A stretch of DNA of 64,000 bases from Escherichia coli (lineage in GTDB: Bacteria; Pseudomonadota; Gammaproteobacteria; Enterobacterales; Enterobacteriaceae): assembly GCF_045037415.1 (NCBI RefSeq), contig NZ_CP173438.1, one strand, 5' to 3'. The notes beneath the pieces are model-generated. The model was not told the origin of the DNA. It worked only from the letters and a program-made list of their open reading frames with translations, and searched no databases. Positions within the stretch are counted from its first letter, which is position 1; each line of letters begins with the position of its first letter. Positions 24,050-33,101 of the stretch are shown here, piece after piece. The translations under genes and the position numbers were made by a program.

Positions 24050-24439
24050 TTACTCTTTTTTCTCCGTATCTGCATCGGGTTCATCAGCAAATAGCTTGCC
24101 CTGCATCCGATCCAGTTCTTCTTTTCTTACCCGCTTAACCACGCTGTAGACCCACTGAAGCGAAACACCAAATTTGCGGGCCAGTTCGTGGTGGTTGCGT
24201 CCGTTAAACTCCCTGAAGATTTCCCGGTCGCGCTGACTGACCTTCCATACCATGCCCATCGGGAAATAAACGTTTTGCCCGCCCCAGACCTGCATCATTC
24301 GGTTCGCGACGGCCTGACCAATCTGGTCGGCAACTTCGGGCTCAATATCAATAATCTCGCGAACGGTCTCAGAGGTATGCTGTGCCAGTTCCACCAGGAG
24401 TTCCGGCCCCTTACTTCGAAACTGATTCAGGTCGCTCAT
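24050..24439 (-). CDS. mor: Mor/C-family transcription activator (Mu Mor-like)
   Basis: 129 aa; C-terminal region GGQNVYFPMGMVWKVSQRDREIFREFNGRNHHELARKFGVSLQWVYSVVKRVRK resembles Mor/C family HTH as recalled; last gene of early arm. Confidence 0.6.
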   Translation of the reverse strand: MSDLNQFRSKGPELLVELAQHTSETVREIIDIEPEVADQIGQAVANRMMQVWGGQNVYFPMGMVWKVSQRDREIFREFNGRNHHELARKFGVSLQWVYSVVKRVRKEELDRMQGKLFADEPDADTEKKE

Positions 24440-24860
24440 GTTTGACTCCCGCAGCTCTGCGCTGCCACTTCTTCAGTTTCTCAATAACACTGCTTGCCTG
24501 TTCAGTACTGAGCCAGCGCAGGGCGCTGATGCCCGTTTCCCGCTTGATCCACCTCGCTAATGCATTTTCTGAACGGTCACGAACAATGCCGGCAGCAGCC
24601 ATTTCAAGCCATAGCGCACGAATTTTCCTGGACTGCGGATGGTTATCAAGCGGTAAACCGGAGCTGGCTTTTCTGGCTGGTTTAACGCGAAAGCCTTTCT
24701 TTTTCATGGATTCCAGCACGCAGTTTAGTTGTGTGGTATCCATTCCTTTGGTTGAGGCTTTACCGGTCAGCCCCTGTAACATCTGGCGGTAGGTGTCTTC
24801 ATCCATACCCAGTTCATTACGGGCAATATGGATAAGCTGTATCAGGCGTTTTTTCTGCAT
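24411..24860 (-). CDS. GemA-like protein (Mu gp16/DUF1018-like)
   Basis: 149 aa; immediately upstream of mor as in Mu; assignment by position and recalled family features. Confidence 0.4.
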   Translation of the reverse strand: MQKKRLIQLIHIARNELGMDEDTYRQMLQGLTGKASTKGMDTTQLNCVLESMKKKGFRVKPARKASSGLPLDNHPQSRKIRALWLEMAAAGIVRDRSENALARWIKRETGISALRWLSTEQASSVIEKLKKWQRRAAGVKHERPESVSK

Positions 24861-24861
24861 A

Positions 24862-25068
24862 TCATCTCCTTTTTTTCAGTCTGTCGGCAACAATGTCGGT
24901 TGCAGCTGGCAGGGTGACTGGCCAGAACAACATGACGGCGGTCATGTACAGGATGTAATGCGCGGTGTCGTAGTGCCTGCCATAGCCCAGGGAACGATGA
25001 AGTCTTGCGCTGCATGATCCTGCGTACATATACCAGAAAAGAAAACAGACAATGGTTTCAGTAGTCAT
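24862..25068 (-). CDS. Small hydrophobic protein (about 68 aa)
   Basis: ORF 24862..25224; likely start at internal Met (MTTETIVCFLFWYMYAG...); predicted TM helices; start uncertain. Confidence 0.3.
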   Translation of the reverse strand: MTTETIVCFLFWYMYAGSCSARLHRSLGYGRHYDTAHYILYMTAVMLFWPVTLPAATDIVADRLKKRR

Positions 25069-25288
25069 TCTGAATACCTCCCCATTCGATATGAATATTA
25101 CGGGCAGCAATGACAGGGTCGTTATTCCACCATGCACCTGACATGTATTTTTCAACCTGTTCGCGTCCGGCAATAACACCAATTGTGATCCCCGGCCTGA
25201 CGTTCTTAAAAAAGGCGCGGGCAAAAAGGTATCTGGCAGATATTCGGCAGGCTTTTAATTTCCGGCTTTTACCTGATAGCGTAATCAT
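25058..25288 (-). CDS. Hypothetical phage protein (76 aa)
   Basis: Tightly packed in early operon; no recognisable motif. Confidence 0.3.
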   Translation of the reverse strand: MITLSGKSRKLKACRISARYLFARAFFKNVRPGITIGVIAGREQVEKYMSGAWWNNDPVIAARNIHIEWGGIQNDY

Positions 25289-26004
25289 CTGGCCTCCAGT
25301 TTCTGTTGTTCCTGCCCACTGACCGGGCGGTGCAGTCTGACGTTCTGCCCTTCACGAAACCCCGCATAGCGCGAGGCGTCGCCATTGCGGCTTCTTCCCG
25401 GTTTACGCGCCCTGGTGGTTTGCGTCTGCGGGTATTTATGTTCCAGCCACTGCTGCATCAGTTCACGCTCATCATCGGTCAGGGCAAAGGACTGTATTTC
25501 ACTGATAACGGCCAGCACCCAGCCTTCGGCAAACTGGTCTCCACGGCTGGTGCGGGTGGCGGTTTTTATTCTTTTGTTCTGTGCACTGATATACTGCTGA
25601 CGCGCCTTTTTCAGCTGACGGGCCAGCACTTCCCAGGTGTATGCAGCCAGTGCCGCACGTTCCCGGTTGCCGTAGAACCCCACAGACGGATGCGTGCCGG
25701 GGTGAATGATGGAGTTAACACCAAATACCTCGCGGATGATGTTCATCAGGCCCAGCATGTAGCGCGGTGGACGGAGACTGCCTGTCGGCCAGTAGTGACT
25801 GATGGTTTCATCAATATCACTCATAGCAATGTCGGAATGTGTGATGCCGTGAACATCCATCAGTTTACGGGCTCGGCGCAGTGCCAGAGCGGCCTCGTGC
25901 GGGTTGCCGGATGCGGCCAGCGCCAGCAACTTTTTCAGTTTCTCAATGTGTTTATTCTGGTCTGTCATTGTTCTGTATCTCCGGTATTTTTCTGCCGTTT
26001 CCAT
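25285..26004 (-). CDS. DUF2786-like hypothetical protein
   Basis: 239 aa; N-terminal IEKLKKLLALAASGNPHEAALALRRARKLMDVHGI signature recalled for DUF2786. Confidence 0.4.
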   Translation of the reverse strand: METAEKYRRYRTMTDQNKHIEKLKKLLALAASGNPHEAALALRRARKLMDVHGITHSDIAMSDIDETISHYWPTGSLRPPRYMLGLMNIIREVFGVNSIIHPGTHPSVGFYGNRERAALAAYTWEVLARQLKKARQQYISAQNKRIKTATRTSRGDQFAEGWVLAVISEIQSFALTDDERELMQQWLEHKYPQTQTTRARKPGRSRNGDASRYAGFREGQNVRLHRPVSGQEQQKLEAR

Positions 26005-26180
26005 GCCCGGACAGCGTCGGACAGCTCTTTCAGGCTGTATGCTGCTTTAAGCTTTTCCCATAACCACTGTGTTGTTATGTGCATCAGCAGGGCAGCCAGG
26101 GCTGCCCCCGCACTGAGGCATGTCGCCAGGCCAGTAAGAATCAGTGTCCATGCGGTGATTTCCCTGAGTATGTCAGCCAT
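25965..26180 (-). CDS. Small membrane protein (71 aa)
   Basis: One or two predicted TM helices (WTLILTGLATCLSAGAALAALLM). Confidence 0.35.
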   Translation of the reverse strand: MADILREITAWTLILTGLATCLSAGAALAALLMHITTQWLWEKLKAAYSLKELSDAVRAWKRQKNTGDTEQ

Positions 26181-26194
26181 TGAATGCCTCCCGG

Positions 26195-26491
26195 TTACTC
26201 GTTCGTGTAAATCACGCCCAGTCGTGCAGCCAGACGTTCCAGTTTTTTCTGTTTGTGGAAGTCAATCAGCCGGTCCATCCCCTGAAGGCGCAGTTGCTCT
26301 GTCATGATTTCCACGTCTGCCAGCTCTGCCGCGAGGTCACTTTCGCTGCCCTGTCCGTTCAGGTTGCGGGCGGCACTGGCCGCCAGTTCAGCGGCCTCTT
26401 CTGCCAGTTTCAGGGCCTGTGCGTCCGGCCCGAAACGCTGCAGGGCCAGACGGTAGAGGGCGGTGCGGGTGAGTTCGGTGTTTCGTGTCAT
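26195..26491 (-). CDS. MazG-like all-alpha NTP pyrophosphohydrolase (putative)
   Basis: 98 aa; acidic motifs LKLAEEAAELAASAAR and DLAAELADVEIMTEQL resemble the EExxE...DxxELxD signature of the MazG/HisE-like family. Confidence 0.45.
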   Translation of the reverse strand: MTRNTELTRTALYRLALQRFGPDAQALKLAEEAAELAASAARNLNGQGSESDLAAELADVEIMTEQLRLQGMDRLIDFHKQKKLERLAARLGVIYTNE

Positions 26492-32091: not shown

Positions 32092-32101
32092 TGATTACTC
32101 C

Positions 32102-32416
32102 TTACAAACGACTACCTGAAATGACACGTTGGTTAATTTCGTTAATACGATCCTGTGCACGTGCCATCTCGTTACTGTGGGCCATGGCGATCTGCAGTAA
32201 CTGGATGCCCGGTGCAAAACGTCCGTTCTCCAGTTTCAGAGCCAGCCCTTCTTCAATGAGGGTGTTGAGTGCCCGGTTGATGTTTGCCGGTGACTCGTGC
32301 AGTGCTGTCGCCAGTTCACCGTTAGAAATACCGTTCAGGGCATGACCGCGCAGCGCTTTGAGTACCCGGAGGATGCGACTGCCGGAGCTTGAAACATTCG
32401 TCTTACTCATCTGCAT
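32102..32416 (-). CDS. Putative winged-helix DNA-binding protein (104 aa)
   Basis: Segment RILRVLKALRGHALNGISNGELATALHESPANINRALNTLIEEGLA resembles an IclR/MarR-type wHTH. Confidence 0.4.
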   Translation of the reverse strand: MQMSKTNVSSSGSRILRVLKALRGHALNGISNGELATALHESPANINRALNTLIEEGLALKLENGRFAPGIQLLQIAMAHSNEMARAQDRINEINQRVISGSRL

Positions 32417-32462
32417 ACCTCTTTTGCGATATGTGATAACCTTTTACAAAGACTCAAAATAT

Positions 32463-32651
32463 TTAGGCCGCCTGAGCTGTTGATTTCAGTCCCAACTTCA
32501 CGGCGATTTCATGGGATTTACCGTAACGGGCTTTGGTCTGCCCGTTGAGAACGCGGTATACCTCATTGCGGTTGTAGCCGTTTTCTTCTGCCCAGCGGGT
32601 GAAAGTGATCCCGCGCTGGCGGAAGAGAGCTTTGACTTGTTCTGCAGTCAT
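32463..32651 (-). CDS. ner: Ner-like DNA-binding regulator
   Basis: 62 aa; first gene of the leftward early operon, divergent from repressor; Ner/Nlp-like HTH by recall. Confidence 0.6.
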   Translation of the reverse strand: MTAEQVKALFRQRGITFTRWAEENGYNRNEVYRVLNGQTKARYGKSHEIAVKLGLKSTAQAA

Positions 32652-32703
32652 CGTTGTCTCCTTTGTTGATGCAATGATGTTTGCCTTATATGTGTTAGAT
32701 TAT

Positions 32704-32721
32704 TGCTCATAATTATGAGCA
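32704..32721. promoter_or_regulatory. Candidate operator: perfect 18-bp palindrome TGCTCATAATTATGAGCA in the ner/repressor divergent intergenic region
   Basis: Read directly; centred in the 93-bp gap between divergent ner and repressor starts; half-site ATGAGCA recurs at 32745. Confidence 0.5.
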
Positions 32722-32744
32722 TATCAAGATAGAGATTCACTTTT

Positions 32745-33101
32745 ATGAGCAAAGATATAGGAGAGCGCGTTATTTCTGTGAGGAAGAAAGCAGGGTTGAA
32801 CCAGAGAGAATTTGCAGCTCGTTTAGGTATTTCTAATGGTGGTATCAGTCAGATTGAAAATGGAAAGGCGATGCCTGGAGGGGAGTTTCTGTTAAAGATG
32901 CATCAAGAGTTTAATGTTGATGTAAATTGGTTGCTCACTGGAATGAGCACAGATGGTATGACTAGAAACCAGAATCAAATTTCCCCAGAAAAACAAAAAC
33001 TAATAGATACTTTTGACGACATGACACCAGACCAACAACGCTCATTTCTTGAGATTGGGCGATTCTATACTCAGCCAAAACCAGGAAAAATCGCAGGCTG
33101 A
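32745..33101 (+). CDS. Prophage repressor (XRE-family HTH)
   Basis: 118 aa; N-terminal HTH LNQREFAARLGISNGGISQIENGKAMP; divergent from ner. Confidence 0.65.
   Translation: MSKDIGERVISVRKKAGLNQREFAARLGISNGGISQIENGKAMPGGEFLLKMHQEFNVDVNWLLTGMSTDGMTRNQNQISPEKQKLIDTFDDMTPDQQRSFLEIGRFYTQPKPGKIAG

Follow-up and report, generated by a model that had tools for sequence, protein, structure and literature searches.

The leftward early arm of a BcepMu-type prophage in Escherichia coli follows the standard layout of its lineage and is accompanied by a predicted set of Mor-type promoters

Introduction

We analyzed a stretch of 64,000 nucleotides of Escherichia coli DNA (NCBI RefSeq assembly GCF_045037415.1, contig NZ_CP173438.1), which we refer to as the window, and which holds an intact transposable prophage of 37,045 bp with TG...CA ends at positions 23887-60931, between ycaL and aroA. 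An initial annotation, made from the sequence alone, had noticed that the early genes of this prophage resemble those of phage Mu in content and order while running in the opposite direction, and it had offered either a divergent architecture native to BcepMu-like phages or an inversion of a Mu-type block as the explanation. Here, we report that the seemingly inverted early arm is the standard published layout of BcepMu/B3-type transposable phages, which is old and lineage-defining and involves no rearrangement. We also describe sites in the window that resemble, in sequence and geometry, the Mor-dependent middle promoter (Pm) of Mu, and that lie upstream of the late operons and of a leftward gene for an adenine methyltransferase (dam).

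Results

Layout of the prophage

The early operon runs leftward from 32651 down to 24050, with genes that are closely packed or overlapping, and it starts from a control region between two divergent helix-turn-helix (HTH) genes (Table 1). Its gene calls were checked by Pfam, and they bear out what the initial annotation had described, namely a leftward early block that ends with mor at the left end of the prophage, the mor stop codon lying 163 bp from that end, and an HTH_3 repressor gene that points right toward the late genes. The repressor is followed by about 2.4 kb of mostly leftward accessory genes, dam among them, and then by the lysis, head and tail genes, which run rightward from 35626.

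Table 1. Features of the prophage and its borders in window coordinates (a point in the strand column means that no strand applies)
Feature	Coordinates	Strand	Remarks
Left target-site duplication copy	23881..23886	.	TTCTTC; codons 2-3 of host ycaL
Prophage left end	23887..23965	.	begins TG, sequence TGATTAGACTTGAGATAAATG; carries GATAAATG-type repeats
Hairpin then U-run just downstream of mor	23998..24041	-	-29.2 kcal/mol, z -2.9; possible early-operon terminator
mor, sole Mor/C-family activator gene, last early-operon gene	24050..24439	-	PF08765, 147.8 bits
gemA homologue	24411..24860	-	Pfam
Small early genes	24862..27051	-	phrog_6436, DUF2786/DUF7168, NTP-pyrophosphohydrolase-like, phrog_3691, 64-aa CxxC...CxxC ORF (26770-26964)
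gam homologue, host-nuclease inhibitor	27062..27592	-	Pfam
AAA+ transposition ATPase	27892..29097	-	AAA_22, ExeA-like; analogue, not homologue, of Mu B
DDE transposase	29069..30838	-	rve domain only
Three lineage-specific early genes	30854..32416	-	phrog_5446, DUF3102 protein, winged-HTH regulator (32102-32416)
Small HTH protein, Ner/Cro position, first early-operon gene	32463..32651	-	
Divergent control region	32652..32744	.	between the two divergent HTH genes
Repressor, cI/Cro-type HTH_3	32745..33101	+	Pfam
Putative terminator, 11-bp stem	33187..33211	.	between convergent repressor and dam
dam, Dam-family (D12) adenine methyltransferase	33218..34072	-	64% identity to B3 ORF48; likely true start about 33982
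dam-leader hairpin, 12-bp stem	34087..34118	-	-34.9 kcal/mol, z -5.7
P5, predicted Mor-type promoter for dam	34127..34169	-	CTAA-N6-TTAA-N23-CATCAT
P1, predicted Mor-type promoter, lysis/terminase/head operon	35558..35600	+	gene start 35626; TTAA-N6-TTAAAATC-N19-GATGCT
Palindrome at prophage physical centre	42927..42964	.	core TTTATAAAGGCTTTAC; between G-like and protease genes
P2, predicted Mor-type promoter, protease/capsid/sheath/tube operon	43025..43067	+	gene start 43098
P3, predicted Mor-type promoter, tail chaperone/tape-measure operon	48942..48984	+	gene start 49012
P4, predicted Mor-type promoter, baseplate/tail-fibre operon	55293..55335	+	ATG 55342
Invertible tail-fibre segment	58168..60217	.	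229-nt inverted repeats; alternative fibre C-termini on minus strand
Gin-like serine invertase	60272..60853	+	start approximate
Prophage right end	60860..60931	.	ends CA; two GCGATAAATG repeats
Right target-site duplication copy	60932..60937	.	TTCTTC; ycaL start codon next at 60938-60940, minus strand

The same layout in related phages

The layout of the window prophage recurs in BcepMu (Burkholderia), phiE255, KP12 (Klebsiella) and B3 (Pseudomonas). In all four, the bottom strand carries mor and gemA, which occupy the left end, as well as the transposase gene, and a divergent HTH/repressor pair is followed by top-strand lysis and late genes. The layout of BcepMu and B3 was reportedly published in 2004 and repeated by later comparative papers. 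When BcepMu (NC_005882) is compared gene for gene with the prophage, gp01 (Mor/C) and gp02 (GemA), both on the minus strand, occupy the left end, gp08 is the ATPase and gp09 the transposase, and gp16 (HTH, minus strand) and gp17 (repressor, plus strand) precede the top-strand lysis and morphogenesis genes. This agrees with the published map, in which the bottom strand carries BcepMu genes 1-13 and the top strand genes 17-52, with lysogeny control at genes 16/17 and a Tn552/IS1604-like transposase (PMC2771037); the divergent layout is also stated in PMC5977238, where B3 is described with the word "inversion". Of the two explanations that had been offered, it is thus the native divergent architecture that stands. 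The transposase of the prophage is 67.8% identical to BcepMu gp09 and 56% identical to B3 ORF12.

The relatives also differ from the prophage in several respects. Like the prophage, BcepMu and phiE255 have only one Mor/C gene, tail genes of the P2 type and the central TTTATAAAGGCTTTAC palindrome, but BcepMu is without an invertase and invertible tail-fibre segment (see also PMC2771037), has no dam in its accessory region, carries other early accessory genes (SSB-like and HU-like, with gam not annotated) and has an acyltransferase gene at its right end. B3 (Pseudomonas, Beetrevirus) has an early operon that is inverted alike, with the Mor-like ORF1 and GemA-like ORF2 at the left end and one Mor/C gene, but its tail module is that of a siphovirus, and a Com-like gene precedes its dam, which is part of the late arm.

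The closest deposited phage is PhiKM (PQ738613.1, Bcepmuvirus), which has the same genes in the same order, with 100% nucleotide identity over window positions 23887-51418 and 99.9% over 51605-58303. Its record differs in being partial and circularly permuted, in being without the invertible-segment and gin end, and in having its Mor-family gene annotated as 'C'. A 343-bp stretch of that record (20234-20576), annotated as 'Fe2+ ABC transporter permease', is missing from the window and is probably an assembly junction or host DNA on a virion end. No publication on PhiKM turned up in our literature searches. By megablast, BcepMu itself gave no match to the window, and we assign the prophage to Bcepmuvirus from the NCBI taxonomy line given for PhiKM, whose record is identical.

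Comparison with the early proteins of Mu

We compared the early proteins with those of Mu by BLASTP and found no significant alignment between the transposase and Mu A, the ATPase and Mu B, the small HTH protein and Ner, or the repressor and c. The only families common to the early proteins of the prophage and of Mu are Gam, GemA and Mor, and these occur in the same relative order at the distal part of the early operon. The claim that content and order follow Mu therefore holds for these three families and fails for 'transposase', 'B', 'ner' and repressor, which correspond to Mu A, B, Ner and c in position but are not their homologues on sequence comparison. The remaining early genes all fall in existing phage families (PHROGs) with no assigned function.

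Prophage and Mu are further alike in their TG...CA ends, in having activator-dependent promoters (predicted ones in the prophage) with a dyad at about -43.5, and in a Gin-type inversion of tail-fibre genes. They differ in that Mu has its repressor at the extreme left end and transcribes its early operon in the direction of the late genes, and in that Mu has a second activator, C, together with com and mom, whereas the prophage is without all three. The target duplication of Mu is 5 bp, compared with 6 bp in the prophage.

A single Mor/C-family activator gene

To look for activators, we searched all six frames of the window by phmmer and hmmsearch, with Mu Mor, Mu C, BcepMu gp01 and the window protein as queries together with a hidden Markov model built from these four. 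One Mor/C-family open reading frame (ORF) was found, that of mor. Its 129-aa product covers the PF08765 profile in full and scores far above the cut-off of 24.9 bits. The GGxxxYxPxG linker is retained as WGGQNVYFPMG, and the HTH region after it can be aligned with Mor and C; in the Mor/C family, these linker residues are invariant and precede a C-terminal HTH (PMC2582627). The same model gave two matches in Mu, as a control, and one each in PhiKM, BcepMu, KP12 and B3. Because these four relatives also carry one, a single Mor/C gene is normal for the lineage. A weak second candidate at 6396-6623 on the plus strand (E = 0.006) is spurious, being antisense inside a 1486-aa host ORF (3368-7828) that we take to be mukB from its size and position.

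The initial annotation had recognized no mom and no separate C, and this is confirmed by the six-frame searches, in which no Mom or Com homologue was found in the window (none below E = 0.7). It had also named, as the finding that would make the arrangement ordinary, close relatives with the same layout and a recognized C homologue. The relatives do have the layout, but each carries a single Mor/C gene and none a separate C.

Predicted Mor-type promoters of the late arm

The initial annotation had suggested a search for Mor/C-type motifs upstream of 35626, 43098 and 53540. We found candidates upstream of the first two, in gaps that share TTAAAATC-N(7-9)-CTGNATTT with no other copy in the 64 kb, and none at 53540, where there is no intergenic gap or motif and the gene start overlaps the preceding gene. 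Copies of TTAAAATC with one mismatch occur in both other late-arm gaps, before 49012 and 55342, and a further candidate lies on the minus strand before dam. The four late-arm sites, P1-P4, occupy the four largest intergenic gaps of the late arm, 21-56 nt from the gene start. They align as TTAA-N6-TTAA(A/T)ATC, 19 nt, a hexamer whose second base is A and whose sixth is T (GATGCT, CAAACT, CATACT and AATACT), and then G(T/C)C(T/C)C. The pattern TTAA-N6-TTAAWATC-N23-CTGYCYC matches the window only at 35558, 43025, 48942 and 55293, all on the plus strand. At the -35 position of P1, one of six bases matches by manual count.

Because this strict pattern was derived from the same sites that it finds, we sought independent support in the relatives and in Pm of Mu. 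Relatives with 73-75% identity at the protease keep the dyad and the -10 hexamer but vary in the 19-nt spacer, and L046, a relative only 41% identical at the protease, has TTAA-N6-TTAAAAGA before its protease gene. We then applied a looser rule, which asks for at least seven of eight half-site matches and a -10-like hexamer 22-24 nt downstream. It gave exactly four matches in BcepMu and four in phiE255, with 0.13-0.27 expected from shuffled sequence, and these sites are all on the plus strand, have a spacing of 23, and lie upstream of gp19, the holin gene, the protease gene and gpW. BcepMu and phiE255 thus each have four TTAA-N6-TTAA-N23-(-10) sites at syntenic positions, and BcepMu has a second site before gp19 instead of a good P3.

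In Mu, the same rule found GTAAagccggTTAA-N23-TATCCT at 9174. This site falls between mor and the middle operon, where Pm lies. At Pm, a Mor dimer substitutes for a -35 element by binding a 16-bp dyad that spans -51 to -36 and has its centre at -43.5 (PMC4390567, PMC4287176). On these comparisons, the window sites are Pm-like in both sequence and geometry. The C-dependent promoters of Mu (Plys, PI, PP and Pmom) were not picked up by the rule, and their dyad differs (TTAT-N6-ATAA at Pmom). The rule has a second match in Mu at 29829, at the gp46/gp47 junction, where a perfect TTAA-N6-TTAA is followed 22 nt on by TATCAT, and this is probably due to chance.

The dyad of P1 can also be read in mirror image, as a minus-strand site at 35571 with CAGGAT as its -10 for the leftward gene at 34767-35495; we rejected this reading, in which the -10 is not conserved in relatives. 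At P4 (window 55330-55344), the ATG of the gpW-like baseplate gene falls at the predicted +1, 7 nt past the -10 hexamer, and the same arrangement is seen in BcepMu at 30811-30825. The P4 mRNA is thus predicted to be leaderless, unless the start codon is misplaced.

We found no description of P1-P5 in the literature that we searched, which did not include the founding BcepMu (Summer 2004) and B3 papers, and these may cover them.

dam and its predicted promoter

P5, the candidate upstream of dam, is accompanied in KP12, L034 and L038 by counterparts that keep (G)TAA-N6-TTAA and CATCCT with a variable spacer. When the accessory genes were searched with PADLOC, no defence-system match was obtained except for methyltransferase models on dam. 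The parallel between a Dam gene under a Mor-type promoter and the C-dependent mom of Mu is suggestive only, as an analogy in which dam would be the functional counterpart of mom. Nothing Com-like is encoded in the dam leader. The leader does contain a strong hairpin that no U-run follows. Among KP12, L034 and L038, its stem is conserved and its loop differs. The hairpin may be an element that controls translation or RNA stability. No Rfam match at the gathering threshold was obtained over 23000-61500, which includes this hairpin.

Discussion

Proposed regulation

The window contains a BcepMu-type prophage with the standard layout of its lineage. For the expression of its genes, the simplest reading is a cascade of two tiers, and we consider it likely that the late genes are switched on directly by the one activator. 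Our analysis shows the anatomy, the homologies, the layout common to the relatives, the single Mor/C gene, and the presence, geometry and conservation of the sites, and from it we infer the binding of the activator, the timing of expression, the role of Dam and the action of the terminators. Transcription from the control region would run leftward through the early operon, that is, through the Ner/Cro-like gene, the lineage-specific genes, the transposase gene, its AAA+ partner, gam, gemA and mor, while the repressor would be transcribed rightward as a single gene that stops at its own terminator. The activator would be made last off the early transcript, diffuse, and bind the TTAA-N6-TTAA dyad 23 nt from the -10 hexamer (about -43.5), both at the four rightward late promoters and at the one leftward promoter before dam. 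There would thus be two tiers (early, Mor, late) instead of the three of Mu (early, Mor, C, late). The modification function that mom serves in Mu would fall to Dam. The initial annotation had found it unclear how Mor-dependent signalling could reach the late promoters in this layout. This puzzle has no basis, because Mor is a diffusible protein that acts in trans, so that the orientation of mor relative to the late genes is irrelevant.

The more specific proposal is that one activator of Pm-type specificity directly switches on four operons for lysis and morphogenesis, of which one seems to be leaderless, as well as the divergently oriented dam with its conserved, structured leader, that it does the jobs of both Mor and C, and that Dam replaces mom as a DNA-modification function expressed late. 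We hold the balance to be even as to whether this proposal is right. Several points weigh against the proposed regulation. The strict motif was built from the four sites that it recovers, so that its figure of zero expected matches is circular; the BcepMu counterpart of P3 is a poor match; and in P5 of the window the context of the second half-site is weaker (TTAAcaga). B3, which has the same layout, gave no credible site by the motif or by the looser rule. The activator is about equally far from Mu Mor (30.6% identity) and from Mu C (27.7%), and because of this the type of site that it recognizes cannot be told from sequence alone. Finally, the literature searched held no transcript, binding or genetic data on this phage or on BcepMu.

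Alternative explanations

A relay as in Mu, which itself passes control from one activator to another, would be compatible with the native layout if the Mor-like protein acted only on an unrecognized middle gene and a second activator outside the Mor/C family drove the late genes. Candidates for such a protein would be the winged-HTH regulator at 32102-32416 or a small early protein, several early genes being of unassigned function and one a predicted transcriptional regulator, and the binding of the TTAA-N6-TTAA sites is only predicted. However, in their half-sites and in their distance of 23 nt from the -10, these sites agree with the Mor site established by experiment at Mu Pm (PMC4390567), we saw no separate middle operon and no extra gap with a different motif, and none of the four relatives checked has more than one Mor/C gene. 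We therefore regard a relay of this kind as unlikely.

Explanations that treat the orientation as an accident fare worse still. The prophage might be a defective, rearranged remnant whose orientation reflects decay, and the PhiKM record, being partial and permuted and having the 343 bp that are missing from the window, could be read in that way. Yet no gene from mor to gin is missing from the prophage, we noted no disrupted ORFs, the two ends and the target duplication are intact, the window is identical to the deposited parts of PhiKM, and the prophage is found at differing sites across genomes, all of which makes decay very improbable. A recent inversion of a Mu-type early block, in this prophage or its immediate ancestor, is scarcely credible. 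It is true that flipping the c-to-mor block of Mu formally gives the gene order seen here, and that "inversion" is the term used for B3 (PMC5977238). But the layout is shared by phages of Burkholderia, Klebsiella, Escherichia and Pseudomonas, and the transposase is only 56-68% identical across those phages, which makes the layout old; the core early proteins, the counterparts of A, B, Ner and c, show no similarity to those of Mu; and the prophage ends are intact and the target duplication is clean.

Implications

The layout itself matters little, since it belongs to a known lineage and the prophage is common in E. coli and already deposited as a phage record. It does bear on annotation: the expectations set by Mu (A, B, Ner, c, C, mom and a left-end repressor) are unsuited to this lineage, and homology alone is not a sufficient ground for naming its one Mor-family gene either 'C' or 'Mor'. 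What is mildly new is confined to the predicted Mor-type regulon and the parallel between dam and mom, which we put forward as a hypothesis. The predicted P1-P5 regulon would be cheap to test, in a prophage found in about 12% of complete E. coli genomes, and it can naturally be set beside Mu in asking how that phage's Mor/C relay may have arisen or been lost.

Additional features of the prophage and its insertion site

In the control region lies the top sigma-70 match in 19 kb, TTGATA-17-AATAAT on the minus strand from 32727 to 32699, and a perfect 18-bp palindrome, TGCTCATAATTATGAGCA (32704-32721), overlaps it and is a putative operator. Farther down the early operon, the product of the 64-aa CxxC...CxxC ORF (26770-26964, minus strand) is zinc-ribbon-like, and the ORF overlaps the start of the next gene by 4 nt. 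It is unannotated in PhiKM, where a plus-strand ORF is called instead, and KP12 annotates an ORF at the equivalent place. We considered it as a possible Com and rejected it, since neither Mu Com nor B3's Com-like protein resembles it significantly.

The core of the palindrome at the physical centre of the prophage can also be written TTTATAAAGG(C/T)TTAC. Its BcepMu counterpart lies in L002 at about 18733-18760, with a further one in L005 at 19752. The octamer TTTATAAA occurs once in the window, once in each of the complete records of BcepMu, phiE255 and B3, and always in the gap between the G-like and protease genes; it is also found once in each of the 21-kb loci of two enteric relatives (L033 and L038), in the same gap. 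The strong gyrase site of Mu lies in the corresponding G/I gap, and the palindrome could be a terminator, a gyrase site, or both.

Near the right end, 229-nt repeats at 58168-58396, 59550-59778 and 59989-60217 accompany two alternative fibre C-termini. KP12 has the same invertase and invertible tail-fibre system and BcepMu has none, and for this reason the enterobacterial branch appears to have gained a Mu-like host-range switch.

The repeats at the left end of the prophage are presumed to be transposase-binding sites, and the right end finishes at 60931 with ...GCGCATCA, or in longer form GCGCGGCGCATCA. The direct repeat TTCTTC at both ends is a 6-bp target duplication. When the flanks are rejoined with one copy of TTCTTC, the result is an uninterrupted ycaL with 100% identity to that of many E. 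coli genomes, and it is this match of the reconstructed empty site that establishes the boundaries and the duplication. The early region was found in 643 of 5,426 complete E. coli genomes. The identical ycaL junction is present in 357 of those, and others have the prophage end beside different host DNA, a pattern that fits a transposing phage that has also spread clonally.

By Pfam, the host flanks carry rpsA, cmk, ycaL, aroA and serC-type genes. The insertion parts the ATG and promoter of ycaL, a metallopeptidase lipoprotein gene, in the right flank from the remainder of the gene in the left flank (23124-23870), and because these are severed from the rest, ycaL is probably inactivated by the prophage. 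In the right flank, aroA (61109-62393, minus strand) is broken into two ORFs of 353 and 110 aa. Against the nearest E. coli genomes, 1,401 nt of the window pair with 1,400 nt at 99.9% identity, which places a 1-nt indel in the window that is either a sequencing error or a genuine frameshift in EPSP synthase.

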